NCBI GenBank assembly: GCA_021810905.1
Contig: JAJZQH010000003.1
Location: 1,897-65,896, forward strand
Reading direction: 5' to 3'
Source: a bacterium
GTDB taxonomy: Bacteria; UBA10199; 2-02-FULL-44-16; JAAZCA01
DNA: 64,000 bases
Position 1 is the stretch's first letter. Each line of letters begins with the position of its first letter. A program made the translations under genes and the position numbers. The notes beneath the pieces are model-generated. The model did not search any database. It was not told where the DNA came from and saw only the letters and a list, made by a program, of their open reading frames with translations. Positions 5,239-59,000 of this stretch are shown here, in pieces.

Positions 5239-5823
5239 CTAGGGAATCGGCACAACGTTGAACTGGAACTGGGTCCCATCGACGATCTTCCGTTCAATGC
5301 TGTCAAGATCGCTCACGACTGCACAATAAGACGCCAGCCAATCAAGCGCCCTCTGTTTGTCGCTGTCACGGGTGGAGACCACTCCGTCGGACGGTACGAT
5401 CACATGATAGCCCCGGAAATAAGCATCCGCCGCCGTCGTTTGCACACATATCTGCGTCTGCATACCTGTGATGACGATGGTATCGACACCCAGCACCTTA
5501 AGACGTTCGTCGAGTTTCGTCTCGAAGAACCCGCTATCCTTATTCTTCTCAACGATGATATCACGATCATCGAGGTAGTCCTGTGCTATCATTGCGCCCT
5601 TTGTACCGCGCAGGACGGGCAACACGCCGTTATGAAGCTCCGCGTGGTTGTCGTCCTCGTCATAGATCAGCTGAAGATGGACGATTGGAATATTCATCTC
5701 GCGCATTTTTTTGAGAAAGCGGATCATCGAAGGAGCGAATCGCTCGACCTGCTTGCGGCGCTCTTCATTCTTGTTAATGAGGTCATACTGCAGATCGTTG
5801 GTTAAAATTGCATATCGCGCCAT
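5239..5823 (-). CDS. Isochorismatase-family (cysteine) hydrolase
   Basis: ORF 5239..5895 trimmed to MARYAILTND start (ATG 5823, GGGGAG SD 7 nt upstream). Catalytic-Cys region VITGMQTQICVQTTA typical of the isochorismatase family. Confidence 0.75.
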   Translation of the reverse strand: MARYAILTNDLQYDLINKNEERRKQVERFAPSMIRFLKKMREMNIPIVHLQLIYDEDDNHAELHNGVLPVLRGTKGAMIAQDYLDDRDIIVEKNKDSGFFETKLDERLKVLGVDTIVITGMQTQICVQTTAADAYFRGYHVIVPSDGVVSTRDSDKQRALDWLASYCAVVSDLDSIERKIVDGTQFQFNVVPIP

Positions 5824-9652: not shown

Positions 9653-10675
9653 TCAGCATAGTCTCGGAAGTTCAGCCCCCTGCAGCAACTGGACGATTTT
9701 TTCCTCCCCGCCTTCGCCGCACATCACGACGTGGCAATCATCACATTCTAACACTTTACCGATGACCGATGCGTGTTCCCCATATCGATGCCGACGGAGC
9801 GTTTCGACAATCCCCTTGCTCGCTCCGGAGGAAGCGAAGATGCAGACATTCCCTTCATTGGCGAGGTAGAGAGGATTTACGCCCAGCATGTCCGCGGCCA
9901 TAACGGTCTCATGCAGGATGGGAAGCCGCACCTGTTCGATGCGCACGCCGAACCCCCCTAGCTGCGAGATCTCGTTTAAGAGCGTTCCCAACCCGCCACG
10001 CGTGATATCGCGCATGCAATGAATACGATTCCCAAACTCTTTCAGCACACCCGCAATCATATCGTTGAGTGGAGCGCAGTCGCTTTGAATCCGCCGTTCG
10101 AACCCCAACCCTTCACGAATTGAAAGTATATGGATGCTGTGATTGCCGAGCTGTCCGGAGATGATGACATCGTCGCCTGGCCGAATGGACGATATCGAAA
10201 GATGTATATCATTAGGCTGAAAAATACCGATGCCGGATGTGTTGATAAAAATCTTGTCGACCTCGCCGCGTTTGACGACCTTCGTATCCCCGGCAACGAT
10301 ATACACTTCCGCCTCCAGTGCCGCGTCACGGATGGAATGCAGGATCTGTTCGAAATCCGAAAGCGGGAAGCCCTCCTCCAGGACGAAGGCGAGCGTCAGG
10401 TACAGCGGCTTGGCGCCGCTAACAGCCAGGTCGTTCACCGTGCCGCAAACGGCGAGCTTACCAATATTCCCGCCGTGAAAAAAAATCGGATCCAGAACAA
10501 AAGAATCGGTGGTGATAGCAATGCGATCGGCCTTCCACTCGAGTACGGTGCTGTCCTCCATCTGGCCTCGGTGGGTCTCACCGAGGCATCGCACGATGAC
10601 ATCTCTGATGAGATCCCCACTCAACTTGCCACCGGTTCCGTGATCGAGCACAATGCGATCTGACAGATAATTCAT
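9653..10675 (-). CDS. hypE: Hydrogenase maturation protein HypE (PurM-like carbamoyl dehydratase)
   Basis: N-terminal VLDHGTGGKLS. PurM-like fold. C-terminus ends ...GAELPRLC with the conserved terminal Cys that carries the thiocyanate in HypE. Track ORF begins at TTG 10693; ATG at 10675 preferred. Confidence 0.85.
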   Translation of the reverse strand: MNYLSDRIVLDHGTGGKLSGDLIRDVIVRCLGETHRGQMEDSTVLEWKADRIAITTDSFVLDPIFFHGGNIGKLAVCGTVNDLAVSGAKPLYLTLAFVLEEGFPLSDFEQILHSIRDAALEAEVYIVAGDTKVVKRGEVDKIFINTSGIGIFQPNDIHLSISSIRPGDDVIISGQLGNHSIHILSIREGLGFERRIQSDCAPLNDMIAGVLKEFGNRIHCMRDITRGGLGTLLNEISQLGGFGVRIEQVRLPILHETVMAADMLGVNPLYLANEGNVCIFASSGASKGIVETLRRHRYGEHASVIGKVLECDDCHVVMCGEGGEEKIVQLLQGAELPRLC

Positions 10676-16385: not shown

Positions 16386-17618
16386 TCAGCATCCGACCGG
16401 ACATCCGCATACTCCCGGCACGCTCGTGCCTGGCACACTCGTGTCGGGCGGGCATTGCGAATTCGAGGTACAGACCCCGCCAGTGTCGCAGTAGCAGGTA
16501 CAGTCTGTTCCGCCGGTGTTGCCTCCTGTATTGCCGCCGCCCGTGTTTCCGCCTCCACTGCCCGTGGATGCGGGGCATGCCCCCCAGGTGCAACCTGTAC
16601 CGCACTGTTTTGTGCCATCAGGATAGCAGGGCATGTACGAGCCCGGCGTGCACTGATAATCGTTCGGGCACGTGGGAAGTATTGCACCAGGACTGACGAC
16701 GCCGCTCTGTTGTAACGAGCCTGGTGAGATGTAAGTGTTTGCCATAGTGACGAGCCCGCTGCCGTCGTTCATGACCTGGACGGCGCTGTCGAGCGTGTTG
16801 CTGGATACATCAAGCGCCGCGCTCACGCAGGACCCCGCATCTCCGAGCGTGCATTTAAAGACGTCGACTCCCGTAAGAATGCTTCCGGCGTCCCCGAGAT
16901 TTTCGAGCCACGTCTCGTCGCCCATCACCACAGTTGCAGTCGTCACGATGACGCCGGCGCACGGAAGCGCCATTGCGCCGAGGGAGACTGTCGTGGCTAC
17001 ACCGCAGGCGCCTACGGAAATGCCCAGCCCCGCAAACTTGAGCAGCTCCGCGAGGTTTTTGACGTCGGAGTCGCAGGCCGGGAAGCAGGTCGACTTGGTT
17101 GAAGCCGAACTGCTGCTGACGGCACTGGCGCCACCGGCGCCGGTAATTAAGTTCGAGGCTTCCGCGGGAACGCTAACCCTCCTGAACACTTCTACGTAAT
17201 CTGTCGGAACGTAGATCTTCGCGATATCGACCGTCCCCGCGCTCAGGTCCCAGTTGGAGAAGAGAAGGATGAAGTCGCCCATGACCGTCCTGTAAGGCAG
17301 CCCGTCGGCGCCAAAGAAAACCGCCACATTGCCGCCCGTGGCGTTGGTCCAGAGTGCGCCCACAATCTTCTCGGTGGTTCCGCTGGAACCGGGAATCGCA
17401 TTGCTCACCAGCGGGAGGAGCATCTCGCCGTCTTTGTTCACCATAATCGCGCCGAGCGAATCTTTGCTCTGCATCACGGCCGCGACCTCGGGCGTATTTT
17501 CGTTGCTGCCGCTCGTACTCCCAGCGCTCCCGCTTCCGCTCGTTCCGCTGCCTACCGATATGCATGAAACGACAGACGGAAGAAAGCAGAGCATCATCAT
17601 AACCAGTATTTTTCTCAT
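16386..17618 (-). CDS. Cys-rich secreted lipoprotein, unknown function (paralog of 52619..53983)
   Basis: Lipobox LPSVVSC. Gly/Ser/Thr-rich linker. C-terminal Cys-rich GGNTGG repeats. Shares near-identical core KSTCFPACDSD(V/A)KNLAELLKFAGLGISVGACGVATTVSLGAMALPCAGV with 52619..53983. Confidence 0.6.
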   Translation of the reverse strand: MRKILVMMMLCFLPSVVSCISVGSGTSGSGSAGSTSGSNENTPEVAAVMQSKDSLGAIMVNKDGEMLLPLVSNAIPGSSGTTEKIVGALWTNATGGNVAVFFGADGLPYRTVMGDFILLFSNWDLSAGTVDIAKIYVPTDYVEVFRRVSVPAEASNLITGAGGASAVSSSSASTKSTCFPACDSDVKNLAELLKFAGLGISVGACGVATTVSLGAMALPCAGVIVTTATVVMGDETWLENLGDAGSILTGVDVFKCTLGDAGSCVSAALDVSSNTLDSAVQVMNDGSGLVTMANTYISPGSLQQSGVVSPGAILPTCPNDYQCTPGSYMPCYPDGTKQCGTGCTWGACPASTGSGGGNTGGGNTGGNTGGTDCTCYCDTGGVCTSNSQCPPDTSVPGTSVPGVCGCPVGC

Positions 17619-17712: not shown

Positions 17713-19077
17713 CTATCTCTGCTTCGCGAACATCACCGGCACCTGTATGCCGCCGCCGCTCACGTTCACCTTGAAGCCGCGGTTGGTGGCGCGCGTGATG
17801 AATCCGCCCACGTTGAAGTTGGTGAAGCGCGCACCGTCCCAGTCGTAGTGGACGTAGACGCCGACGTCTGCAATCACGCGCCTGGGTCTGGAGAGAAAAC
17901 CTGCCACGTCAATCGTATTGAGATCGATGCGATCCTGGAGAACCCAGTACTTGTGATCTTTATGAAGTATGCGCGCGAGCCGCGCTGGAATTTTTTTCCC
18001 AACAAATACGTGCTCGCCTCCCATGCCATCAGCGTACTTGAGCACGAGCCTTGAAGGACGATGGAGCGCTTCTTCTTCGTTGCCTCTCAACAATCTCGCA
18101 GGAACGATCGTATCCGCGAGCCTCTCCGCGCGCGCCTCGCCTATGAGGCGCCTGAGAATATTTTTATCCTCGAGCACGGTGAGGATCGTCTTTGGCGCTA
18201 CGAGTCCAGTGATGAACGGACTGTAGTGAGGTGTCTCGGACCGCACGAGGTCGCGGAAGAATCCCGGGGCCTCTTTCAAATCTTTGAGTTCGAAGCTGTA
18301 CGAGAGCTGGAATGCATCCGGAGGCCTTGTATTTGCTCCGATCTGCAGCTTGCCATCCCTGAGACGGACGCATTCGCGCGAGAGGAGTTTGCAATCTTCA
18401 TCGAGCTTCACCTTGAAGGCGGATGGAGAGACGAGCCGCATGTCGAGTCCGATCGCGCGCGCCTTTTTAAGGATCACCTCCTCTTCCCAGTTGTACAGCT
18501 CGTACTGGAAGCGCACGAAACGCCTGCCGAGCCTTCGCATGTTGCGCACTTCGCTCGCGGCGGTATCGAGGCATATCACCTCGCGCCTAAGTATCGGAAA
18601 GAGCTTGAGGATCGTCTCTTGAATGAACGACGAGCGGCCGGTTCCGTCGAAGCCGATATCGTTCACCTCCATGAGCTTCGGCGGATTATCGGGACTGGGC
18701 TTTCCCACCACCGCCATATCGAATCGCAGGCTGCCGATGATGCGCCGCTTTCTGTGCTTGAGCACGCCGAGCTCGCGGATCATATACTCCGAGATAGGCG
18801 TTGGCGGCAGGAGTTCCCTGATCTCGTCGGAAGGCAGCGAGAGAATCCGCATGAGCGATTCGGTGATATCGCGACACGTGCGCCTTATGACCGGAAGATA
18901 CGACGCGGGAAGGATGCGCGGGAGCGCGGAACAATCGTGATCGTTGATGCCGATGAGCCCGGAATCCGCGAACTCGTTCCACAGCTCGGCCTTGAGAGCT
19001 CTGAGGTCGCGCTCCCTGAAGAGCCTCGCGAGCTTCGATGGAAGGGCCTCGTGAAAATGACGGTGTCTTGGAAACAT
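17713..19077 (-). CDS. Hypothetical protein, possibly circularly permuted ATP-grasp superfamily
   Basis: 454 aa. VLKYADGMGGEHVFVGKKI resembles the ATP-grasp glycine-rich loop. No other firm motif. Confidence 0.4.
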   Translation of the reverse strand: MFPRHRHFHEALPSKLARLFRERDLRALKAELWNEFADSGLIGINDHDCSALPRILPASYLPVIRRTCRDITESLMRILSLPSDEIRELLPPTPISEYMIRELGVLKHRKRRIIGSLRFDMAVVGKPSPDNPPKLMEVNDIGFDGTGRSSFIQETILKLFPILRREVICLDTAASEVRNMRRLGRRFVRFQYELYNWEEEVILKKARAIGLDMRLVSPSAFKVKLDEDCKLLSRECVRLRDGKLQIGANTRPPDAFQLSYSFELKDLKEAPGFFRDLVRSETPHYSPFITGLVAPKTILTVLEDKNILRRLIGEARAERLADTIVPARLLRGNEEEALHRPSRLVLKYADGMGGEHVFVGKKIPARLARILHKDHKYWVLQDRIDLNTIDVAGFLSRPRRVIADVGVYVHYDWDGARFTNFNVGGFITRATNRGFKVNVSGGGIQVPVMFAKQR

Positions 19078-21882: not shown

Positions 21883-23010
21883 TCACGGATTATCGGAGCG
21901 CCGTCGTCGGAAATCCTCGAGAAATTCCGCTAGAGGCATTTTGAATTCGCCTGATCCGCCGTTCGCCATCGAGTTCCGCCACATCAATCCAGCAAGGCGC
22001 TGCTGAACGCCCTCGTCCTCTATGACGAGCGCTTCCAGGAGCAGGTTGCGACCGCCTTGCGCGCAGTTCGAGAGAATGAATAAGAGCGGGGCATCATTGC
22101 GCATTTCAAGACGTTCCCGCATCTTTCGCAGATTTGCGAGCAGCGAATTGAAAACCTTCACCGCATTCTTGTTGCCGATGAAGACAATATCGCGGTTCAT
22201 CAAACCGCCCAATCCAGGGGTTTCGCCGGTTTTCAGCCAAAGCTCAAGAGAGCAGCGAAAGCCGTGCTCCCCATAGACCGTCGCAAATCCGGGTCGCAGC
22301 TCAAAGCCCGCGTACCTCATCATCTCGAAGAGCGCTACGTGGAACCCTGGTCTCCACGTATCGTCATCAAAGACGATGAGCATGGAACCGCCTTCCGAGA
22401 TCCGCCTTTCGCATCCGCACAGGAGCTCATGCATCCTGGTGAGGTACATACGATCGAATGTGTGCAGGGGATCCATCTCCCAGTCCATCGCCTCAGGGTG
22501 TACCCACGTCACCAGATCAAAGGTCTCAAGAGAGTCGCCATCATCCGCAAGGCCCTCAATAAATCCGGATTGCACCATCCCACATCCGTCTCCGGCACGG
22601 ACCTGATGAATCTTTCCCTCAGGATCGTCCCCAAGAGCGCACTGAAACTCTTTGAGATTGATCCTGGCGCCCTCCAATTTCCAACTCAAGACATCAAATC
22701 CGATAGTCTTCACGAGACCCGGAAGCGCCAGTCTCATCCCCAAATTCTCGTACCATTTCCCCGCGCCGACCGAAAGTACGGTGCGCGCCTCACACTTCTT
22801 TCCGACTTCCTGATAGAGGAGTATTTGCGCGGTATCGTAATACAATCTTGGGACGAGTTCGTCGGCGCCTCCGCCATTATAGAAATGTTGATAGAGCCTC
22901 AGCAGATCATACCGCTGCGCAGCGACAAGCTGTTCGACCGAGAAGTGATCTCTGCTTGCAGACAGTGCCCGCGGCACTGAGTCCCTCAACTCGATATTTT
23001 TTTGAATCCA
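21883..23010 (-). CDS. Hypothetical protein (start uncertain; track ORF reads through an upstream MITE copy to 23403)
   Basis: Track ORF 21883..23403 includes in-frame translation of the repeat element (ENECSPRQAAGYHRQH...). Likely true start is a GTG/TTG just downstream of the element. Weak Rossmann-like VLSVGAGKW. Confidence 0.4.
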   Translation of the reverse strand, partial: WIQKNIELRDSVPRALSASRDHFSVEQLVAAQRYDLLRLYQHFYNGGGADELVPRLYYDTAQILLYQEVGKKCEARTVLSVGAGKWYENLGMRLALPGLVKTIGFDVLSWKLEGARINLKEFQCALGDDPEGKIHQVRAGDGCGMVQSGFIEGLADDGDSLETFDLVTWVHPEAMDWEMDPLHTFDRMYLTRMHELLCGCERRISEGGSMLIVFDDDTWRPGFHVALFEMMRYAGFELRPGFATVYGEHGFRCSLELWLKTGETPGLGGLMNRDIVFIGNKNAVKVFNSLLANLRKMRERLEMRNDAPLLFILSNCAQGGRNLLLEALVIEDEGVQQRLAGLMWRNSMANGGSGEFKMPLAEFLEDFRRRRSDNP

Positions 23011-23031
23011 TTGCGGGAGTTCAATGAGATG

Positions 23032-23152
23032 GTTCCCCGCAGCTTGCTGCGGGGTTTCCGCCACCATCTCCCTTGAGGGGAGAGGGAAGGGTGAGGGTGA
23101 TCGTCGATGTTGCCGGTGATACCCCGCGGCTTGCCGCGGGGAGCATTCATTT
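23032..23152 (-). repeat. MITE-like ~130-bp repeat element, inverted copy
   Basis: Reverse complement of the element at 46753..46900, 52425..52554 and 55829..55958. Hairpins CCCCGCAGCTTGCTGCGGGG, CTCCCTTGAGGGGAGAG, CCCCGCGGCTTGCCGCGGGG. Confidence 0.75.
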
Positions 23153-23485
23153 TCCGGAGCCGACTGTTCGCGATCGCGCGTGACTGGCAGTCGCGGAGTA
23201 ACCGGCCCAGGCGCGCCACGATATTGATCGCCAACCGCCACATATTCCGACGCCACGTCATTCAGGCATATACCCTGACGGGAATCGGGCAGCGGTATAA
23301 TATCATCGTCGCAGACCACGAACACTTCCTCTGCACCGGATTCCTCTGCAGGCAGCCCGTCTGCCGCGGCCATTACATCGAGATTTAACGGTTTTACGGT
23401 CATATATCTCCTGCCCTGACGACATGGACGTTATCGCAGAATTCCTGAAAAAGTTGCTCGATATTCGCACCCAAATCCGACACTT

Positions 23486-23625
23486 GAATTATCACTCAAA
23501 TCCTCCCTCCCTTGATGGGAGGGAGTTTGAGGGAGGGTGACCATGAAGACTTTCGTCACCCAAGGAATGAGTACCACCCTCTCCCTAACCCTCTCCCATC
23601 AAGGGAGAGGGAATTTTTTGTGTCG
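23486..23625. repeat. Degenerate/variant copy of the stem-loop repeat family
   Basis: Two hairpins CTCCCTCCCTTGATGGGAGGGAG and CCCTCTCCCATCAAGGGAGAGGG, related to the central CTCCCCTCAAGGGAGAG hairpin of the main element. Confidence 0.5.
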
Positions 23626-43508: not shown

Positions 43509-44390
43509 CTAGAATCGCCTCCTCGCCACGCGCAGCGCCACGGTGTTGAGCGCCATGATGAAGAAGAAGAGGACTATGCCCGTCGCGAAGAGCGCCTCGC
43601 GGTGATCGCCCACCGCGTAACCCATCTCGATGGCGATGTTGGCGGTGAGCGTTCGCACGGAATCGAGTATGGAATGCGGAATCTGCGTGGCGTTGCCGGA
43701 GATCATGATCACGGCCATGGTCTCGCCGACCGCGCGCCCCATGCCGAGGATCACGCCCGCGAGAATGCCGGAACGTGCTGCCGGAAGAATCACTCGCCAC
43801 GCGGTCTGCCACTCCGTCGCCCCGAGCGCGAGCGAGCCTTCCTTGTAGCTCCTGGGCACCGCATGGATCGCGTCGATCGATACGCCCACTATCGTGGGCA
43901 GGATCATGATGGCCAGCACGCAGGAAGCCGCGAGTATCGAAAGCCCCGGCCCACCCAGATGTACTCTAATGATAGGGGCCAGCCACATGACTCCGAGAAA
44001 TCCGTAAACCACCGAAGGGATGCCGGCGAGAAGCTCGATGGCGGGCTTGAGCACTGCGGCGAGCCTGGCCGGAGCAAACTCCGCGAGAAAGACCGCGCAT
44101 GCGACACCAAGCGGCACGCCGAGTATCAACGCCCCTGCGGTAACCCACAGCGATCCTATTATAAAAGGAAGTATGCCGAACTGCCCTTCGAGCGGAGACC
44201 ATATCCTGCCAAAGAGAAAATGGCCGAGCCCGCTCCTGATAATGATCGGCACGCCCTCCTTGAATATAAAGAGGGCAATGAGCGCCAGGATCGCAATCGA
44301 GGAGCACGCGGCGATAAAGAGCAGCTTTGAAATAAATCGATCCATAAGAAAGCTTGTGAGGCAAGCGACGGGATGGAGTATTCTCGGCAC
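43509..44390 (-). CDS. pstC: Phosphate ABC transporter permease PstC
   Basis: 293 aa polytopic permease. Immediately follows pstS and precedes pstA. Confidence 0.85.
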   Translation of the reverse strand: MPRILHPVACLTSFLMDRFISKLLFIAACSSIAILALIALFIFKEGVPIIIRSGLGHFLFGRIWSPLEGQFGILPFIIGSLWVTAGALILGVPLGVACAVFLAEFAPARLAAVLKPAIELLAGIPSVVYGFLGVMWLAPIIRVHLGGPGLSILAASCVLAIMILPTIVGVSIDAIHAVPRSYKEGSLALGATEWQTAWRVILPAARSGILAGVILGMGRAVGETMAVIMISGNATQIPHSILDSVRTLTANIAIEMGYAVGDHREALFATGIVLFFFIMALNTVALRVARRRF

Positions 44391-44510
44391 GCCTTCGTCG
44401 CCTCAGACGCCGGCTCCTCGTCTGCCCTCCGGACGCCGCGTTATTAGAGGCTTAGAAAGCGGCGTCCTCCGAGCGCCGAGAAAACTCCATCCCGTCGCTC
44501 GCCTCCAGAG

Positions 44511-45332
44511 TTATTTTGCTGCTATGAGTCCTTCCTTTTCGAGCGTCTTCTGCGCCTCGTCCGAGAGCATGTAATCGAGGAACGCCTTTGTCTGCGGAGA
44601 CGGTTCGCCCTTGGTGAGCAGGAAGATCGGCCGTGCGAGCGGGTACGATCCATTCTTCACGTTGGTGTCGTTTGCCGGAACTCCGTTATAGGTGAGCGCC
44701 TTGACCTTGTCGTTCACCAACCCGATGGAGACATAGCCGATCGCTGTCGGATCGGAGGCAACTGCCTGACGAACGGTGCCCGTTGAGTTTTGGAAGAGCG
44801 CTGAAGGCGCGAGCTTCGCGCCGACCAGCACCAGCTTGTCAAATGAGCGCCGCGTGCCGCTCCCCTCCTCGCGCGAGATCACGTGGATCGGCGAATCGCT
44901 GCCGCCCAGATCCTTCCAGTTTGCAACTTTGCCGGAGAATACGTCTCGCGCCTGATCGATGGTGAGCGCCTTGATGGAATTCACCGGGTTCACGACGATT
45001 GCTATGCCATCGCGGGCAACGACCGTTGATTTGAGCGCCGCTGCCTCAGGCGGGAGTTCGAGCAGATCCGCCATGCCGATCTGCGCCGCGCCCGAAAGCG
45101 CCGACTGTATGCCCACTGCGGAGCCGCCGCCTTGCACGTTGATCTGCACGTCCTTGTGCGTCTCGCCGTAGCGCTCCGCGAGCTTCTCGGCGAACGGCTG
45201 GAACGCGGTCGAACCGGCCAGGGTAATCGAATTTGCTGATGCGCGCGAGCATCCATTGCTTGCCAACGCGGCGAAGACGAAACCGCAACTCACAAATACA
45301 GCCAGGGCCTTCATTGATATCCTGTTCATGTG
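44511..45332 (-). CDS. pstS: Phosphate-binding periplasmic protein PstS
   Basis: Track ORF trimmed to MNRISMKALAVF. Signal peptide + PstS/PBP-like fold (GSTAFQPFAEKLAERYG, QGGGSAVGIQ). Confidence 0.85.
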   Translation of the reverse strand, partial: HMNRISMKALAVFVSCGFVFAALASNGCSRASANSITLAGSTAFQPFAEKLAERYGETHKDVQINVQGGGSAVGIQSALSGAAQIGMADLLELPPEAAALKSTVVARDGIAIVVNPVNSIKALTIDQARDVFSGKVANWKDLGGSDSPIHVISREEGSGTRRSFDKLVLVGAKLAPSALFQNSTGTVRQAVASDPTAIGYVSIGLVNDKVKALTYNGVPANDTNVKNGSYPLARPIFLLTKGEPSPQTKAFLDYMLSDEAQKTLEKEGLIAAK

Positions 45333-45394
45333 ATGCCTCCGTTTTGTTATCAAGCAATTGAGTAATGAACCAACATGAGTCACATGTTCGAAAT

Positions 45395-46591: not shown

Positions 46592-46682
46592 CTAACGCTC
46601 CTTTCCTCACATTGAAAGTGCTCGTGATTGACGACGAGGATGACCTGCAGGACTGCGCCACGACCTGGACAATATAGATCAA

Positions 46683-46725
46683 ATCGTTACGAACGCCTTG
46701 TTCGGAAATCGTTAGAAAATTGTTA
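46683..46725 (-). promoter_or_regulatory. Candidate Pho boxes (TAACAAT-TTTC-TAACGAT ... TAACGAT) upstream of porin O/P gene
   Basis: Three TAAC(A/G)AT direct repeats on - strand. First two are 11-bp phased. Confidence 0.35.
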
Positions 46726-46752
46726 ATGCGTGAACTTGTAGCTCATCAAGAC

Positions 46753-46900
46753 AATGAATGCTCCCCGCGGCAAGCCGCGGGGTATCACCGGCAACATCTC
46801 CGATCACCCTCACCCCTGCCTACCGGCAGGCAGGCTTCCCTCTCCCCTCAAGGGAGAGTGGCGGAACCCCCGCAACAAGCTGCGGGGAATCATCTCATTG
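46753..46900 (+). repeat. MITE-like ~130-150-bp repeat element (three stem-loops, imperfect terminal inverted repeats)
   Basis: AATGAATGCTCCCCGCGGCAAGCCGCGGGG...CTCCCCTCAAGGGAGAG...CCCCGCAACAAGCTGCGGGGAATCATCTCATTGA. Copies at 52425..52554, 55829..55958 and inverted at 23032..23152. Confidence 0.75.
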
Positions 46901-46901
46901 A

Positions 46902-48059
46902 CTATCTTTCAAAGAGTGCGGTTGAAATGAGGCGATGTATATCGGTATTTTCGATCGTCCCTGACTTGAAGTGGTCCTTCATGCCAATCGCGAAGAGAGG
47001 GACGTCGACTGCGGTGTGCGCGGCCTCAAGTGAAGCGGGATCGTTCGGATCGAGGACGCGCGGATACGCAGAGTGCGGACCCGTCGCCCACGTGATGATC
47101 GGGTAAAGCCTTCCGTCTGCATCCTCGCCGGCATTTGCGAGGACGCTGCTGCCTGCCTTCGCATAGCCGTTTATCGCAAGTCCGCCGGTTTCGTGATCCG
47201 CCGTCACCAGTATCAGCGCCTTCTCCGGATCCGTCATCGAGGCACCGGCGCGGACAGCGGCGTCGAACTCGATGGTTTCTTCAAACGCGTCGTGCGCCCG
47301 GTTATCATGTTCTGCCTGGTCGATTCGACCGCCCTCGACCATGAGGAAAAATCCTTTTGGATTTTTTGAGAGCCGTTCGATGGCGATCTTCGTCATCTCG
47401 GGGAGCGAGGGCCCTGAATATCCGGACTGCTTTCTCTCGAGCACAAATGGGATATGGCTGTCCGCGAAGCAGCCGACAACCTTTTGATCGATCGGCGCCA
47501 TCTTTATATCCCGCAGATTGTATGCCAGCGTGAAGCCCTTCCTGGTCACTTCATCCTTTGAGAAATATTTACAGCCACCTCCCATTGTCACATCGATCTC
47601 CGAGTCCAGCAGCTGGCCCGCGATTTTTTGCTCCTCGTTGCGATCAGCAACGTGTGCATAAAAACCCGCCGGCGTTGCATGGGTGATGCGAGTAGTGGTG
47701 ACGAGACCCACGGAGAGCCCCATTTTTTTTGCCTCTTCGGCTATCGTTACGAGCCTGTGATTCAGATCGCACCTGGGTCCCAGACCTAGACAACCGTTAT
47801 CGGCCTTGCTTCCGGTAGCCATAGCTGTAATTGCAGCCGCTGAGTCGGTCACCATCTTGTTGTGAGATCCTGTGCGCACGTGAGCGATGAGCGGGAGCTC
47901 ATCAATGAAGAGACCGCCGCGCCGCTCATTCTTATAAAGCCGAGTTGCAGTGATATCCGCGACGCCCATCCCGTCTCCGATGAAGAGGATGACATCTCTC
48001 GCATGAGCGGTTTGCGAGATGAGGCATGCTGCCAGCGCTATTGCAATTTTGAATTTCAT
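46902..48059 (-). CDS. phoA: Alkaline phosphatase
   Basis: Motifs DGMGV, DSAAAITAMATG (active-site Ser), EGGRIDQAEHDN, TADHETGG. Signal peptide. Confidence 0.85.
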   Translation of the reverse strand: MKFKIAIALAACLISQTAHARDVILFIGDGMGVADITATRLYKNERRGGLFIDELPLIAHVRTGSHNKMVTDSAAAITAMATGSKADNGCLGLGPRCDLNHRLVTIAEEAKKMGLSVGLVTTTRITHATPAGFYAHVADRNEEQKIAGQLLDSEIDVTMGGGCKYFSKDEVTRKGFTLAYNLRDIKMAPIDQKVVGCFADSHIPFVLERKQSGYSGPSLPEMTKIAIERLSKNPKGFFLMVEGGRIDQAEHDNRAHDAFEETIEFDAAVRAGASMTDPEKALILVTADHETGGLAINGYAKAGSSVLANAGEDADGRLYPIITWATGPHSAYPRVLDPNDPASLEAAHTAVDVPLFAIGMKDHFKSGTIENTDIHRLISTALFER

Positions 48060-50153: not shown

Positions 50154-50843
50154 ATGGCTAAACTGAAAGTGCTCGTGGTCGACGACGAGGAAGACCTGCA
50201 GGAACTGCTGCGCTACAATCTCGAAAAAGAGGGCTATTCCGTATCGTGCGTCTCATCGGGTGAAGAGGCTCTCGCCTCTGTCAGAAAAAGCGTGCCGGAC
50301 ATCATCGTTCTGGACCTCATGCTTCCGGGCATGGACGGCTTCGACGTCTGCAGGGCGCTGAAGAAAGAGCAGAAGAGTGCGCGCATTCCTATAGTGATGC
50401 TCACTGCAAAAGGTGAGGACACGGACATCGTAGCCGGGCTCGAACTGGGCGCTGACGACTACGTGACCAAGCCCTTCAGTCCCAGGGTTCTGATAGCGCG
50501 GCTGAGAATGGTGCTGCGCCGCAAGCGCAAGGACGATGCGCCGTCTGCTGCAGAAACGATTGAGATACGAAATCTGACGATAGACCCGCAGCGGCACAGG
50601 GTCTCCATCAAGGGCAGGTCCGTCGAGCTCACCGCGACTGAGTTCGCCCTGCTGCATCACCTGGCCGGCAAACCCGGCTGGGTCTTCACGCGCGGCCAGC
50701 TCATCGATTCGATCAAGGGGAGCGACTACGCCGTGACCGAACGCTCGATAGACGTACAGATCGCCGGCCTCAGAAAAAAACTCGGCGCGGCCGGAGAAAA
50801 TATCGAGACGGTGCACGGCGTCGGCTACAGGTTCAAGGAGTGA
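50154..50843 (+). CDS. phoB: OmpR/PhoB-family response regulator
   Basis: Receiver domain (VVDDEEDL...DLMLPGMDG...K) plus winged-helix trans_reg_C (ELTATEFALLHHLA...VHGVGYRF). Adjacent to phoR-like kinase and pst genes. Confidence 0.85.
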   Translation: MAKLKVLVVDDEEDLQELLRYNLEKEGYSVSCVSSGEEALASVRKSVPDIIVLDLMLPGMDGFDVCRALKKEQKSARIPIVMLTAKGEDTDIVAGLELGADDYVTKPFSPRVLIARLRMVLRRKRKDDAPSAAETIEIRNLTIDPQRHRVSIKGRSVELTATEFALLHHLAGKPGWVFTRGQLIDSIKGSDYAVTERSIDVQIAGLRKKLGAAGENIETVHGVGYRFKE

Positions 50844-52424: not shown

Positions 52425-52554
52425 AATGAATGCTCCCCGCGGCAAGCTGCGGGGTATCATCGGCAACATCTCCGATCACCCTCACCCTTCCCTCTCCCCT
52501 CAAGGGAGAGGGTGGTGGAAACCCCGCAGCAAGCTGCGGGGAATTATCTCATTG
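52425..52554 (+). repeat. MITE-like repeat element copy
   Basis: Near-identical to 46753..46900 and 55829..55958. Confidence 0.75.
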
Positions 52555-52618
52555 ATGCATCAACCGTTGATGCATTGAGGCATTTAACCACCAAGCTGCA
52601 GATAGATGGAGGTGTACT

Positions 52619-53983
52619 ATGAAAAGGGTCATATGCTTGCCGATAGTGCTTCTCGCCTTTGTCCTCGTTTCATGTGTCAGCACTTCAAGCGGCACCAGCA
52701 GCGACAGCGGCACCACCAGCGGAACCTCGTCCACGACGATTCCCGCCAAGGCAGCAGTACTGCACAGCACGCCTCCATTCGGCGGGATCATGGTGGCCGA
52801 CAGTGGAGAGGTGATCCTCCCATTGGTCAGCTCCGACGGCAAGACGATCACCGGCGCCATCTGGAACAGCGAGACCGGCGGCACAGTCACGGTCTATCTC
52901 GATCCTTTGACCCACCTGCCCACCAAGACCATCCTTGGAGATTTCATCTTCCTCTTCTCCAACTGGAACGCGAACGCAGGAACCGTGGACATCGCTGAGA
53001 TCTACGGGCCAGGCAACTTCGTACAGTTGTTCAGGGGTGTGAGCGTCTCCTCGCTCGCGATCGCTAACGCCAATCTGAGTTCCAAAGACATGGCCTCCAA
53101 GTCGACGTGTTTCCCGGCCTGCGACTCCGACGCCAAGAATCTCGCGGAGCTCCTCAAGTTCGCGGGGCTGGGCATATCTGTCGGCGCATGCGGCGTGGCG
53201 ACGACCGTCTCGCTTGGAGCGATGGCGCTCCCGTGCGCCGGCGTTCTCGTGAGCACGGCCATCGCCGTTGTGGATACTGATACGTGGCTGCAGAATCTCG
53301 ACGATGCGGAGAGCATTCTTTCGGTGATCGACGCAGCGCAGTGCGCAACGCTCGATGTGGAGAGCTGCATCAGCACGATCCTCGGAGGTCTGAGCGCCCT
53401 CTTCGACAACGCGAGCAAGGTCGAGACCGCATATGCAGATTTTGAAACGAACGCAGATGCGGCGCTGGCAGATCCTGCCCAGCCGAGCGGCGTCATGCCC
53501 GGAAGTGGAGCTTTGCCGATAGCGGCGACAGGCACCTATGAATGCGATCCGAACGGCTCCATGCTCTATGAACCCTGCCTCACGGGCGGGACGAAGACAT
53601 GCCAGGCCGACTTCACCTATTCCGAATGTCCGAATGCGCCTTCCAGCAGCAGCTCAGGCAGCACCGGAGGAAGTGGAGGTTCCGGCGGAAGCGGCGGCAG
53701 TGGTGGAAGCGGAGGCAGCGGTGGAGGCAGCGGCGGGGCGTGTTCCTACAGCTACGATATTCCCAGCATGAAGTGCCCTGGCGAAACCTGCGTTACGTTT
53801 GCGGCTTGTTGCTCCTCATGTTCCATCAGCTCCTGCGTATCTACTTCTGACGAGCACTGCAACGGGGCGTCCTATTATTACAAGGTGTCAGGCGACCCAA
53901 CGCATTACTCGACCAGCTCGGCGTGTCAGTTGGCAGCTAACTGTGTTTACCAGTGTTTTGGCCAGACGGCCACGTGCAACTGA
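52619..53983 (+). CDS. Cys-rich secreted lipoprotein (paralog of 16386..17618)
   Basis: Lipobox LVSCVS. Shared core KSTCFPACDSDAKNLAELLKFAGLGISVGACGVATTVSLGAMALPCAGV. (GGS)n linker. Cys-rich C-terminus. Confidence 0.6.
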   Translation: MKRVICLPIVLLAFVLVSCVSTSSGTSSDSGTTSGTSSTTIPAKAAVLHSTPPFGGIMVADSGEVILPLVSSDGKTITGAIWNSETGGTVTVYLDPLTHLPTKTILGDFIFLFSNWNANAGTVDIAEIYGPGNFVQLFRGVSVSSLAIANANLSSKDMASKSTCFPACDSDAKNLAELLKFAGLGISVGACGVATTVSLGAMALPCAGVLVSTAIAVVDTDTWLQNLDDAESILSVIDAAQCATLDVESCISTILGGLSALFDNASKVETAYADFETNADAALADPAQPSGVMPGSGALPIAATGTYECDPNGSMLYEPCLTGGTKTCQADFTYSECPNAPSSSSSGSTGGSGGSGGSGGSGGSGGSGGGSGGACSYSYDIPSMKCPGETCVTFAACCSSCSISSCVSTSDEHCNGASYYYKVSGDPTHYSTSSACQLAANCVYQCFGQTATCN

Positions 53984-54300: not shown

Positions 54301-55677
54301 TTATCGCTCCGAAACCATGGGCAAAGCCAGCGCGTTCGCGCCGCTCACCAGGTCTTCATAAGAATCGTCGTCCTGTGTCACACGATCTTCCTCTTCTGGG
54401 AACGAAGACTGACCGGTCCCCGCATCGAAGAGGAGATTTTTTTCATCTTCTCCACCCGCATTTCTCACATCCACTACAGAGTGGCCTGCGTGAAATTTCA
54501 CCTGTTCCACACCTGAATCGAGAGCTGCGATCACGCGCCTGGTTACGCTGTGCAATCTGGCCGGGTCATCGTCCATAATGCGGATGTGCATCGAGCCGAG
54601 AATCGCGAAATTGAGGACAGCGATCGGCGTGAAGAATGGAGCCGCGCCTCCGAAGACGCGATCTGCGTGACGCTGCAGATCGTGATGGCGCGCCTCTTTG
54701 CTCCGGGCGGCAATCAGATACGAATTTTCCATATCGAGCAGCCCCGCCATGCCGTTAAAACCTGTGAACCACGGTTTATCGTAAAGAGATTGAAAGAGCC
54801 GCTGCGGCAGCAGCTCATCAACGGGAAAGATATTGAACGTTTCACTGCGCGCCGCTTCATCCGCCATGAGCATGTAGCCCGCGGCAGCCCGATCGTCAGC
54901 TGCGATCCCCTCCTGGAATTCCAGCTCCGTTCGATCATCGGCAATACCGATTCGAGGCGCTGCGACGCCGAACGCATCGAGAACCGAGTGAACCGCGCGC
55001 GACCATTCGGCTTGAGATAACTCGCCCATCGAGTGCGCGCGCATGAGCTCCATCCTGATCTTCGAATCGCCTGCGGCGCTGGAGATCGTGAGCGGCAGTA
55101 GCAGCGGCCTCTGCACAGGAAAAGCCAGATTCACCGCCTCCATGATATGCTCGTGTCTCACTGCGCCATCAGCAGCCATGAGCAGGATATTATTTCCATA
55201 GTCGAACAGTGCGGTGCGCACTGCAGGCCCGCCAGCTTTCCCGCGCAGAATTTCCGCGAGCTCATGCACCCTCTCACCAGCGTTCCTCAACACGCGCACG
55301 TAGTTGTCGCGGAAAAAAACGTACCTGGAAAGCGCTGCGTATCCGGCAAATACCGATTCCAGACTCATCTCCGCGTTACGATCGCGCAAAAGATATCCGC
55401 GCGCGTCTTCTCGGAACCTGCGCACGGTTGAAATGAGCGCTCCATACTCCCGCGCCTTTGGATCCGCGCTCCTGGAAAGCACGGCATGAAAACGAACGCC
55501 CAACGCCGCGTACGTTTGAAACCGCCTCGGATCTTCCACGGCGCTCAAGAGCACAGCGCGGCTCTGTCCGACCAGAGTCGGATCGTCCTCGACGATGGAC
55601 CTCGCCAGCCCCCTGCCGTGCTCCGTCCTGAGGATGGAAAAATCGTAGCCTGATACCGCGCCGCTGGAATCGTACAT
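54301..55677 (-). CDS. Hypothetical protein (458 aa)
   Basis: Long ORF, start abuts zinc-ribbon gene stop region. No recognised motif. Confidence 0.4.
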   Translation of the reverse strand: MYDSSGAVSGYDFSILRTEHGRGLARSIVEDDPTLVGQSRAVLLSAVEDPRRFQTYAALGVRFHAVLSRSADPKAREYGALISTVRRFREDARGYLLRDRNAEMSLESVFAGYAALSRYVFFRDNYVRVLRNAGERVHELAEILRGKAGGPAVRTALFDYGNNILLMAADGAVRHEHIMEAVNLAFPVQRPLLLPLTISSAAGDSKIRMELMRAHSMGELSQAEWSRAVHSVLDAFGVAAPRIGIADDRTELEFQEGIAADDRAAAGYMLMADEAARSETFNIFPVDELLPQRLFQSLYDKPWFTGFNGMAGLLDMENSYLIAARSKEARHHDLQRHADRVFGGAAPFFTPIAVLNFAILGSMHIRIMDDDPARLHSVTRRVIAALDSGVEQVKFHAGHSVVDVRNAGGEDEKNLLFDAGTGQSSFPEEEDRVTQDDDSYEDLVSGANALALPMVSER

Positions 55678-55828
55678 TCAGATCACCTGTTCGAAAGCCC
55701 TCAGGAAGGCGTATAACGTCAACCCTTACCTCAGAGATAGCAATTTAATAATTTGAATATACACTGTTTTTTGAGATGCTCCAAGTCGCAAATGAATTGA
55801 TGGGCAGAAATAATGCTATCTGTGCGCT

Positions 55829-55958
55829 AATGAATGCTCCCCGCGGCAAGCCGCGGGGTATCACCGGCAACATCGACGATCACCCTCACCCTTCCCTCTC
55901 CCCTCAAGGGAGAGGGTGGCGGAAACCCCGCAGCAAGCTGCGGGGAATCATCTCATTG
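55829..55958 (+). repeat. MITE-like repeat element copy
   Basis: Near-identical to 52425..52554. Lies just 3' of cusA. Confidence 0.75.
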
Positions 55959-56002
55959 ATGGGCCATCTTGACACACGCGGCAGGATGTTTGCTCGAGAA
56001 GA

Positions 56003-59000
56003 TCAGCCTCTGAATTCCCTCTTCTTCCAGAGGAGATAAATTGCGGGGTACACCAGGAGTTCCATCGCGAATGACGTGACGAGTCCGCCTACCATCGGAG
56101 CTGCGATGCGCTTCATCATGTCCGCGCCCGTGCCGATGGACCACATGATCGGGATGAGTCCCATGAATGCGGCCATGACAGTCATCATCTTCGGCCGGAT
56201 TCTTTTCACAGCGCCGTGCACGATCGATTCCTTGAGATCTGAGATATCCTTGAGCATCCCGTTCTTGCGCGCGTCCTCGTGCGCGATGTCGAGATACAGG
56301 AGCATGAAAATGCCGGTCTCCGCATCGAGACCCATGAGCGCGATGAGCCCCACCCATACCGCGATCGACATGTGATAACCCAGGATGTACAGGAGCCAGA
56401 TCGCGCCGATCGCGGAGAACGGAACCGCGAGGAGCACGATCGCGGCCTTGATGCCGGACTTCGTGTTCAGGTAGAGCAGCACGATGATGATGAAGAGCGC
56501 GAGCGGCAACACCACCTTGAGCTTCTCGCGCACGTGCAGCATGTTCTCGTATTGTCCGCTCCACGCGAGCGCGTAACCTGACGGCAGCTCAAGGTTCGCA
56601 TTCACCGCTTTTTTTGCGTCAGATACAAAGCTGCCCACGTCGCGTCCGGCCAGATCTACGTACACATAGCCCGACAGCATTCCGTTCTCGTTTCGAAGCA
56701 TGCTCGGGCCCTGCACCAGGCGAATATCGGCCAGCGCAGCGATGGGCACCTGCGCGCCGTCGGGCGCCGCGACCAGCACGCGCGAGAGCGCGCTCATGTC
56801 GTCGCGAAGTTCCCTGCTGTAGCGCACGTTGATCGGATAGCGCTCTCGCCCTTCCACCGTCGTCGAGACGTTCTCTCCTCCGATGGCCGAGAGGATCGTC
56901 TCTTCCGCGTCGGCAACCGAAATTCCAAGCCGCGCGAGTTCATCACGCTTGAGGTCGAAATCCAGGAAGTATCCGCCTGCGGCGCGCTCCGCGAATACGC
57001 TCCTCGTACCCGGCACGCCCTTGAGTATAGTTTCAAGGCGGCTGCCGATCTTCTCGATTTCCTTTGTATCGTTTCCGAGGATCTTGATTCCTATCGGCGT
57101 GCGTATGCCGGTGGAGAGCATGTCGATGCGCGCCCTGATCGGCATGGTCCACGCGTTGGAGACGCCCGGGAACTGCATGGCCTTGTCCATCTCTGCAACG
57201 AGTTCGTCCCAGCTCAACCTGTCGTTCCAGATATGCCTCAATGGAGCCTTCATTATATCCGGCATCCATGAGTACCATCGTTTTTTTCCACGCCACTCAT
57301 CCATCGGTTTGAGCACGACCGTCGTCTCCATCATCGAAAACGGCGCAGGATCCGTGGAAGTCTCGGCGCGGCCCGCCTTGCCGAAGACCCGCTCTACTTC
57401 TGGAAACGATTTCAATATGCGGTCCTGCTGCTGAAGGAGATTCTGCGCCTCAGTCACCGATATGCCCGGCAGCGTCGTGGGCATGTAGAGGATAGTGCCC
57501 TCGTTCAAAGGCGGCATGAATTCGCTGCCCATCATGACGAACGGCGGGATCGCGGTAAGGAGTAAAACCCCCGCGATCACGATGGTCCTCTTCGGATGTT
57601 TTAATACGAGCCTGCATGCGGGTTCGTAAACTCGGAAGAGCCTCTTGCTCACCGGATGTTTTTCCTCGGCGTAATAGCTGCCGACGAAGACGCGGTTGTA
57701 GATCCAGGAGAGCCAGGCGGGCTTGAAGTTGCGAAAATCCATGCGCGTGAAGAGCATGCGCATCACCGGATCGAGCGTCACCGCGAGGAGCGCGGCGATC
57801 GCCATGGCGAACGTCTTCGAATACGCCAGGGGCTTGAAGAGCCGCCCTTCCTGATCCACGAGCGTGAAGATCGGCAGAAATGCGACTGCGATGACCAGCA
57901 GCGAAAAGAACACGGAGGGCCCGACCTGCTTGAGCGCGTCGAGGCGCACCTGATGGAAGTCTCCCTTGCGGCCGCCGTCCTTCCATTGCTGCAGCTTCTT
58001 GTAGGCGTTCTCCACCTCCACGATCGCGCCGTCCACGAGCACGCCGATGGATATGGCGATTCCCGCGAGCGACATGATGTTCGCGGTGAGCCCCATGAAG
58101 TAGAAGGGTATGAACGCGAGGAGCACCGACAATGGGATCGTGAATATCGGCACAACGGCCGAGGGGATATGCCAGAGAAAGATCAGGATCACTATCGATA
58201 CGATGATCATTTCCTCTATCAGCGTGTCGGTGAGCGTGGAGATCGAACGCAGTATGAGATCCGATCTGTCATATGTGGTGACGAGCGTAACGCCTTTGGG
58301 TAAAGACGGTTCGATCTCCTTGAGCTTCTCCTTCACGCGATCGATCACTCGAAGCGCGTTTTCTCCCTGCCGCATGATCACGATGCCGCCCACCGCGTCG
58401 CCTCTTCCGTCGAGGTCTGCCACGCCGCGCCTGATATCCGGCCCAAGCTCCACGTTGCCGATCTGCCCGATGGTAACCGGCGTGCCGGCTATCGGGTCGG
58501 CGCCGACCGCTATATTCCGGATATCCTCCACGCTCTTTGCGTACCCGCGGCCTCGCACCATGTATTCGCGTCCGGAAAATTCCACGAGGCGGCCGCCGAC
58601 GTCGTTGTTGTTGCGCCTGATCGCCTCCACGACCTGTCCGATCGGGATCTTGTAGGCCGCGAGTTTATTGGGATCCACGCCCACCTGATACTGGCGCACG
58701 AACCCGCCGACGGTCGCAACCTCCGCGACCCCGGGGACCGACTGGAGATAATAACGCAGATACCAGTCCTGATAGCTGCGCAGCCCAGCGAGATCGTTCT
58801 GTCCGGATTCATCCACCAGCGCATACTGAAAAACCCATCCCAGGCTCGTTGCGTCTGGACCGAGTTCCGTGGTCACTCCCTCGGGCAGTCGCGGAGTGAT
58901 CTTGCTCAGATATTCGAGCGCGCGGCTTCGCGCCCAGTATATGTCCGTCCCGTCCTCGAAGATGATGTAGACGTAGGAGAAACCGAAGTCGGAGAAACCG

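Follow-up and report, generated by a model that had tools for sequence, protein, structure and literature searches.

Short repeats in the genome of an uncultured bacterium are very probably PATEs, transposase-less derivatives of IS200/IS605 elements

In a 64-kb stretch of DNA from an uncultured bacterium (64,000 nucleotides, analysed as a whole and called the window here), a unit of 131 nt is present in four copies. We consider it very likely that these repeats are PATEs, i.e. transposase-less IS200/IS605 derivatives that are moved in trans by a Y1 transposase; they belong to a known kind of element and do not represent a new inverted-repeat MITE. A first-pass annotation, made from the letters of the sequence, had described a dispersed, non-autonomous mobile repeat of three stem-loops, which was borne out. 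It had also taken the repeat for a novel kind of element, a view we abandon since the units fit the definition of PATEs of the IS200/IS605 family, which were first defined in Haloquadratum walsbyi (PMC3119063) and have also been reported from Geobacillus stearothermophilus (bioRxiv 10.1101/2023.03.14.532601) and Halanaerobium (PMC7290912). As in known PATEs, the units (126-144 nt) are too short for a transposase, and their near-terminal palindromes, direct in all four copies, are alike and similar to those of IS605-type transposons. Insertion occurs 3' of a short conserved target, corresponding to the targeting sequence of 4-5 nt at the 5' end of known PATEs, and no target duplication is seen. 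The copies are more than 90% identical, as in the PATE families termed 'homogeneous'. Their ends are homologous to those of autonomous elements with a Y1 TnpA (elements of ~610 nt and the architecture of an insertion sequence on a plasmid), and a guide complementary to the cleavage site was found in the window copies as well as across families.

All four copies claimed in the first-pass annotation were recovered by repeat search and MAFFT alignment and are 94-98% identical (Table 1). The inverted copy had been placed at 23032-23152; it exists, with 11 nt cut off in that reading. The element proper comprises 126 nt, a multiple of three, and only two of its six frames are open. Copy B is longer (element proper 144 nt; 149 nt in total rather than 131), with a 20-nt palindromic insertion and a 2-nt deletion, and copy D is nearest to the family consensus. 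The window belongs to contig DAHVYM010000026.1 of MAG GCA_027327785.1. A fifth, truncated copy lies on the same contig beyond the window (L151, 10117-10196), and a sixth, 97% identical, was found in the same metagenome on a different contig (L148, 8297-8427). Searching both strands of the window for the hairpin motif CCCCGCGGCAAGCCGCGGGG with up to three mismatches gave 12 matches at eight distinct hairpin positions, versus 0.01 expected from dinucleotide shuffles. A blastn comparison of the unit with 72,556 plasmids gave no match, a protein search with the translated frames of the element returned only two small ORFs, and a full-text literature search for the hairpin sequence retrieved no paper.

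Table 1. Positions in the window of the copies of the probable PATE and their parts, and of one further repeat. TAM (TCAA) and TEM (TCAT) follow the terminology of Meers et al.
Feature	Position	Top strand	Remark
Copy A	23021-23151	+	element proper 23025-23150 (126 nt)
Copy A, TAM	23021-23024	+	TCAA
Copy A, LE hairpin	23035-23054	+	
Copy A, central hairpin	23064-23086	+	
Copy A, RE hairpin	23122-23141	+	
Copy A, TEM	23147-23150	+	TCAT
Copy B	46753-46901	-	element proper 144 nt
Copy B, TAM	46898-46901	-	TTGA on the + strand
Copy B, LE hairpin	46868-46887	-	one stem mismatch
Copy B, central hairpin	46838-46858	-	
Copy B, extra palindrome	46815-46834	-	20 nt
Copy B, RE hairpin	46763-46782	-	
Copy B, TEM	46754-46757	-	
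Copy C	52425-52555	-	
Copy C, TAM	52552-52555	-	
Copy C, LE hairpin	52522-52541	-	
Copy C, central hairpin	52490-52512	-	
Copy C, RE hairpin	52435-52454	-	one G.T pair
Copy C, TEM	52426-52429	-	
Copy D	55829-55959	-	nearest to family consensus
Copy D, TAM	55956-55959	-	
Copy D, LE hairpin	55926-55945	-	
Copy D, central hairpin	55894-55916	-	
Copy D, RE hairpin	55839-55858	-	
Copy D, TEM	55830-55833	-	
Probable 'variant' of the first-pass annotation	23485-23620		aligns with the PATE core in L081

On the strand of the first-pass annotation (P strand), the unit begins with A^ATGA ATGCT (^, element boundary), followed by hairpin 1 and TATCACCGGCAACATC..GATCACCCTCACCCTT. The central hairpin CCCTCTCCC-CTCAA-GGGAGAGGG and TGGCGGAAA form the middle, and hairpin 2 with AATC ATCTCA^TTGA the other end. 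The top strand, defined as the sense strand of tnpA, reads N-TCAA^TGAGATGATT-hairpin...hairpin-AGCATTCAT^T-N in the window family. All three stem-loops fold, each with a DNA free energy of -10 to -11 kcal/mol, and folding of the whole unit gives z = -5 to -6. The terminal hairpins CCCCGCGGCAAGCCGCGGGG and CCCCGCAGCAAGCTGCGGGG differ by a compensatory change (GCGG/CCGC versus GCAG/CTGC, a G:C to A:T exchange). Both carry the loop CAAG on one and the same strand in four of four window copies and are therefore direct repeats, as an inverted end would carry CTTG. The imperfect terminal inverted repeats noted earlier are thus present as sequence, but the hairpin loops within them are direct. The inverted appearance arises because TCAA and TCAT, as well as GATT and GATA, are near mirror images that lie on either side of two similar palindromes. 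Guide and stem mutations were observed in the window: the LE guide is changed from GATT to AATT in copy C and to GGTT in copy A, and copies B and C have stem mismatches. Several copies with such mutated guides or mismatched stems may be dead. In the L148 copy, 97% identical otherwise, the loop of one terminal hairpin (LE, 8394-8413) is flipped, with CTTG for CAAG, which suggests a loop inversion within a perfect palindrome.

Hairpins of this type covary in their stems. In an unbiased genome scan, the variable pair was A-T in 87, G-C in 31, G-T in four and A-C in one of the matches listed. At the LE hairpin, which the search had left unconstrained, three of five stem pairs were changed on both sides, with 13 doubly changed cells versus 3.4 in shuffles, and none of 500 shuffles reached 13; these counts, like those for the guides below, ignore shared ancestry. 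In IS200/IS605 elements, 'linear and cross' complementarity with the tetranucleotide 5' of the palindrome determines the cleavage sites (PMC8266576; PMC7290912). We applied this rule to the top strand in the form c1=comp(g2), c2=comp(g1), c3=comp(g3) and c4=comp(g4). In the RE arrangement, 48 of 117 distinct contexts obeyed the rule, compared with 11.0 +/- 2.7 by permutation of guides (maximum 22 in 2,000 permutations), and in the LE arrangement 24 of the 69 remaining contexts, compared with 11.0 +/- 2.7 (permutation maximum 21), these guide counts spanning six guide classes (GATA>TCAT, GATT>TCAA, AATA>TTAT, CATT>TGAA, AATT>TTAA and TATT>TAAA). The window copies contribute the pairs GATT/TCAA at LE and GATA/TCAT at RE. 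Only on the reverse complement of the P strand are these covarying tetranucleotides located 5' of the hairpins, and we therefore take it to be the active strand. The P strand itself was rejected: there, the covarying tetranucleotides lie 3' of the hairpins, whereas guides lie 5' (PMC8266576), and the terminal motif is merely 4-5 nt away from the hairpin, leaving no space for a guide. The active strand and the cleavage points, the latter to within 1 nt, are inferred from the covariation, from one paralogous empty site and from comparison with IS608.

TCAA precedes LE in six of six copies. Comparison of the flanks showed no relationship among the five full copies, with at most 1 nt shared; none of the target-site duplications whose presence at the copy boundaries had been suggested as a check was found. 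The single base just outside the ends is the same on both sides (before TCAA and after CATT) in four of these five copies. On the top strand the outer bases of the window copies are T..T, G..G, A..A and A..A, while those of the L148 copy are unequal; the chance of four out of five is ~0.016. A target preference N-TCAA-T-N may account for the equal bases, which a peel-and-paste model leaves unexplained. The window copies would also suggest a target duplication of 1 nt, or of 3 nt (GAx), but neither is followed by the L148 copy or by the sister families, and we discarded both. An empty site was available for a 91-nt sister PATE in a MAG named 'Syntrophaceae bacterium bog_1110' (L106). With the sister PATE removed at its predicted boundaries, the locus reads ...AAAGGAGGGTA^TTTAAACC..., and an uninterrupted paralog 2.8 kb away (...AAAGGAGGGCATTTATACC...) is colinear with it, gapless across the junction and identical at 48 of 55 positions (87%). 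The insertion thus lies right after the predicted target, which is kept, and no base is duplicated; one base at the junction is ambiguous, with both the left flank and the element ending in A, and the site is a paralogous one of a sister family, not orthologous to any window copy.

The first-pass annotation had suggested looking for a parental insertion sequence with matching terminal inverted repeats; what we found are full-length relatives with such ends that carry an intact gene for a Y1 transposase. A metagenome scan with the end AATGAATGCTCCCCGCRGCAAGC yielded 26 loci, and in at least 16 of them (L123, L125-127, L130-135, L142-147) this end is followed by a tnpA gene that lies on the opposite strand and is entered from its 3' end. 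Eight of these loci (L123, L126, L130, L131, L133, L145-147) contain an element of ~610 nt with a second, similar hairpin end, and six further loci contain gene-less forms of ~150 nt with both ends present. The tnpA product of the AATGAATGCTCCCCGCRGCAAGC relatives, which ends with ...KKQLWGGEFWSKGYFISTVGRHGNEE...QMELF, matches the full Pfam profile Y1_Tnp (E=7e-38) and the NCBIfam equivalog transpos_IS200 (135 bits, cutoff 55), but remains below the cutoff of REP_Tyr_transpos (21 versus 80 bits); its best PDB match is the TnpA of IS608 (2a6m, E=1e-18). The other end of the ~610-nt elements (...CGAAGCAAGCTTCGGGGAATCTGACCCCCAGAGATTGA(A)) shares with the window unit the hairpin core, the AATC after the hairpin and the terminal TTGA. 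At RE, the window element and the full-length elements are identical in 34 of 36 nt. At LE they match only partially: hairpin, guide and TCAA are common to both, and the linker is shorter in the full-length elements; none of those recovered in the metagenome scan had the LE linker of the window unit, as an exact parent would. On a plasmid of Pseudanabaena sp. PCC 7367 (NC_019690), an annotated IS200/IS605 tnpA has the same hairpin type at both ends, CCCCGC(C/T)GCTTGCGGCG(GGG) on the tnpA sense strand. Within the 64-kb window itself we detected no tnpA by tblastn with 11 TnpA sequences (nothing better than E=0.08).

According to our proposal, a putative Y1 HUH TnpA encoded elsewhere would bind both subterminal hairpins on the single-stranded top strand, which could become available, for example, on the lagging-strand template. 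GC skew, used as a proxy for the replication strand, has the top strand G-rich in four of five copies on the contig, a number too small for any conclusion. As a guide, the four nucleotides 5' of each hairpin would pair with the cleavage site, the LE guide GATT picking the flanking target TCAA and the RE guide GATA picking TCAT, the last bases of the element. The 126-nt strand would then leave as a circle and, in a 'peel and paste' manner, re-insert 3' of another TCAA, with no target duplicated. The copies would imply an IS200 transposase that is active now or was so recently in this uncultured organism; present-day mobility of PATEs in this genome is inferred.

A classical MITE, i.e. a deletion derivative of an insertion sequence with a DDE transposase that recognises terminal inverted repeats and creates a target-site duplication, was the reading favoured in the first-pass annotation. 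The ends AATGAATGCTCCCCGC and GCGGGGAATCATCTCATT are indeed partly complementary, the whole unit can fold end to end, and in four of five copies the bases flanking the two ends agree. Against it stand the direct loops of the terminal hairpins and the lack of any duplication above 1 nt, with none at all in the L148 copy or at the paralogous empty site. In addition, all full-length relatives have a Y1 (HUH) transposase of the IS200 type and none a DDE gene, and the apparent inverted repeat is explained by the similarity of TAM to TEM and of the two guides. We therefore regard a MITE of this type as highly improbable. Only slightly better are the prospects of a REP/BIME/REPIN-type repeat kept by a single-copy domesticated RAYT. 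Such enzymes belong to the same protein superfamily (Y1 HUH) and act on GC-rich extragenic palindromes, and in a related organism (L149) a RAYT-like gene with GTGCCTGGCAC palindromes adjoins a homolog of ORF 21883..23403, the ORF that contains copy A. However, the transposase linked to the window family is an IS200 equivalog that fails the REP_Tyr_transpos profile and occurs, like an insertion sequence, in many different insertion contexts; a conserved GTAG 5' of the hairpin is missing, GATT and GATA being found there; and the L149 palindromes are unrelated, with no copy of the window element in L149. The gene in question (L149, 9016-9666) codes for a RAYT-like Y1 transposase of 216 aa with 57 bits to REP_Tyr_transpos (cutoff 80) and is flanked by GTGCCTGGCAC-type palindromes at 8811-8900 and 9883-9897, which together appear to be a separate REP-like system.

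Strong folding (z about -6) and covarying hairpin stems could also be expected of a conserved structured non-coding RNA (an sRNA, a cis-regulator or an omega-RNA-like guide) that is not mobile DNA, and covariation had been named beforehand as a finding that would speak against a mobile repeat. The covariation is there, but a hairpin recognised as single-stranded DNA by a transposase explains it without RNA. A search of the whole window against Rfam 15 gave no match at the gathering threshold, the best match at E up to 10 reaching 16.7 bits (threshold 44). Moreover, both orientations are found with respect to adjacent genes, copies also lie within ORFs, the listed loci have no conserved gene neighbour, and the same ends flank a transposase gene. 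An omega-RNA would lack a partner, as the parents are IS200-only, without tnpB or iscB. An RNA of this kind is thus a most improbable explanation. The hairpin together with GGGGAATTAAACCC is reminiscent of type I-E CRISPR repeats, but the matches are single, not arranged in arrays, and flank tnpA, so that we dismissed a CRISPR repeat. An addition that would be compatible with PATEs is the co-option of copies as terminators, as stabilisers of mRNA 3' ends or as a protein N-terminus. In its favour are the location of three copies 0-150 nt after stop codons, the stability of the 8-bp GC hairpins, and copy A, which lies in frame in an ORF of 506 codons and contains the start of the gene annotated by NCBI. 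On the other hand, no T tract follows the hairpins, a terminator scan was empty at all copies, and survival of insertions under selection also predicts placement after genes. The role as terminator or mRNA stabiliser put forward previously is accordingly unsupported, and co-option in any of these forms seems rather unlikely.

Some features set the probable PATEs of the window apart from known ones. Their parents are IS200-only (tnpA alone, ~610 nt), there is no remnant of an omega-RNA or TnpB, and the unit looks as if it carried terminal inverted repeats, TAM/TEM and the two guides being near mirror images. The length of the unit, 126 nt, is moreover divisible by three, the unit contains an open frame, and the host is an uncultured bacterium. 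With IS608 and ISDra2 (TnpA structures 2a6m and 2xm3) the family has in common a homologous transposase in its relatives, subterminal hairpins on one strand, insertion 3' of a tetranucleotide and a guide tetranucleotide 5' of the hairpin that selects the cleavage site (PMC8266576). Unlike these, the window element has neither tnpA nor tnpB, its target is TCAA instead of TTAC or TTGAT, and its hairpins consist of a perfect GC stem of 8 bp and a loop of 4 nt. At the third guide position, the non-canonical A.A of IS608 is replaced by a Watson-Crick T:A pair. REP/REPIN elements with their RAYT (TnpA-REP) are likewise short, extragenic and GC-rich; a Y1 HUH enzyme acts on their palindromes as single-stranded DNA, and the choice of the cleavage site involves a tetranucleotide located 5' of the palindrome. 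Apart from the differences in GTAG and enzyme given above, the window hairpins are direct, whereas those of REPINs are inverted, and the full-length parents behave like insertion sequences with multiple copies. Rickettsia palindromic elements (RPEs) are short palindromic repeats inside ORFs that leave the frame unbroken. By description only, the insert in the window resembles them as a short palindromic repeat in frame in an ORF, its translation being putative. No sequence relation to RPEs is known, and no mobilising enzyme is known to be established for them, whereas the window element would be moved by an IS200 TnpA.

We consider the family to be of some interest for the wide spread of its hairpin, the clean guide/target covariation and possible in-frame coding insertions. 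A hairpin-only scan of 185,579 species-representative genomes detected at least 119 loci. Those listed belong to MAGs labelled as Nitrospira, Deltaproteobacteria/Desulfobacterota, Syntrophales, Lachnospiraceae, Saccharibacteria, Methanosarcinales and others. An IS200 lineage can be recognised by this hairpin type (CCCCGCRGCAAGCYGCGGGG) in MAGs that carry the labels of many bacterial phyla and of some archaea. Around half of the matches listed form one superfamily of units of 90-180 nt, which start with A(A/T)T(G/A)AA ~9-15 nt before the hairpin and have a second, similar hairpin before their end. Among the matches listed, a copy in Deltaproteobacteria bacterium UBA6106 (L050) comes closest to the window unit over its full length, with 75% identity. 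An all-against-all BLASTP of 2,421 ORFs from the 119 listed loci revealed no neighbouring gene family in more than nine loci, as expected for dispersed non-autonomous copies. The natural variants of the CCCCGCRGCAAGCYGCGGGG lineage, with at least six guide/target pairs, provide a comparative data set on retargeting, the principle of which is already established. The L106 contig carries another short palindromic repeat, AAAATCCTCCCTACCCTCC-TTTAGCAA-AGGAGGG (~2308-2415, 4018-4055 and 5239-5288), with at least four copies in 8 kb of this Syntrophaceae MAG. A PATE has landed in one of these copies, and the repeat resembles the central hairpin inside the window PATE.

The 'variant' mentioned in the first-pass annotation probably corresponds to the last entry of Table 1. 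It consists of CTCCCTCCC-TTGAT-GGGAGGGAG, GGGTGAC...GTCACCC and CCCTCTCCC-ATCAA-GGGAGAGGG, i.e. two hairpins of the CCCTCCC/GGGAGGG type that flank a GGGTGAC...GTCACCC stem. Its alignment with the PATE in L081, a Deltaproteobacteria MAG, takes in TATCA, which is normally found 3' of the RE hairpin, and both CCCCGC terminal hairpins are absent, as if deleted. In our reading, this stretch is either a relic that no longer moves or a passenger repeat in its own right.

Three copies are located 3' of genes, as stated in the first-pass annotation. The TAM of copy B directly abuts the TAG stop codon (46902-46904) of an alkaline phosphatase gene (46902-48059, - strand), and copy C follows a HAMP/HisKA sensor kinase gene (end at 52274) after 150 nt and precedes ORF 52619..53983 (no Pfam match). 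Copy D is separated by 44 nt from the stop of an AcrB-family gene (at 56003) and has ORF 54301..55677 (no Pfam match) on its other side. The ORFs 55776..56039 and 46720..47106, suspected earlier to be spurious products of the repeat, are both in the mechanical ORF list and seeded by it; recognition of the PATE removes them. It also flags the doubtful start codon of the NCBI protein P0001 and explains assembly breaks. For example, both ends of a 3.3-kb Logan contig (L002, SRR13189623_193333) lie inside PATE copies, with 28 and 39 nt of the unit, and the short-read assembly evidently breaks at the repeat.

The location of copy A had escaped remark. It lies in frame within ORF 21883..23403 (- strand, 506 codons), which has an AGGAG four bases 5' of its ATG and, after removal of the 126 nt, reads ...SAPEIELPQWIQ... 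The nearest homolog is P0002 (58% identity), and the similarity starts exactly at I85, equivalent to M52 of P0002. Either copy A belongs to an N-terminal extension of poor conservation, or translation truly begins at the element or within it. P0001 (394 aa) starts at an ATG inside copy A. Here, copy A alone has GGGAGATGG (23069 region) where the other copies have GGGAGAGGG, and the G to T change specific to it breaks the central hairpin and creates the in-frame ATG used for P0001. An unrelated protein on another contig, P0003, contains the element-encoded peptide in the same frame as in ORF 21883..23403; in both proteins the element-encoded segment comprises 42-44 residues within acidic N-terminal regions, and plausible ribosome-binding sites are found upstream. 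Tentatively, these cases point to a 126-nt PATE with one fully open frame that is tolerated and translated inside host proteins, although we would not call this probable. If true, PATEs derived from IS200 could reshape the N-termini of proteins or supply start codons, as is described for Rickettsia palindromic elements.

Further repeats and duplications were observed in the window. A fragment of 64 nt at 46613-46672, ~80 nt from copy B, matches the 5' end of the response-regulator gene 50154..50843 with 81% identity and is out of context where it lies; it looks like a gene remnant of a rearrangement or deletion beside the element. At 44358-44505, between ORFs 43509..44390 and 44511..45383, an inverted repeat unrelated to the PATE has arms of 31 nt that are 94% complementary and 86 nt apart (GAGGCAAGCGACGGGATGGAGT...). 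Inverted similarity of 70-78% connects 16862-17300 with 52916-53333, and likewise 17868-17911 with 54525-54568. The genes concerned, ORFs 16386..17618 and 17713..19077 on the one hand and 52619..53983 and 54301..55677 on the other, have no Pfam matches, and judging from the sequence the two pairs appear to have arisen when a two-gene cassette was duplicated in inverted orientation, and to have diverged since. The second of these cassettes (52619..53983 and 54301..55677) is flanked by PATE copies C and D.
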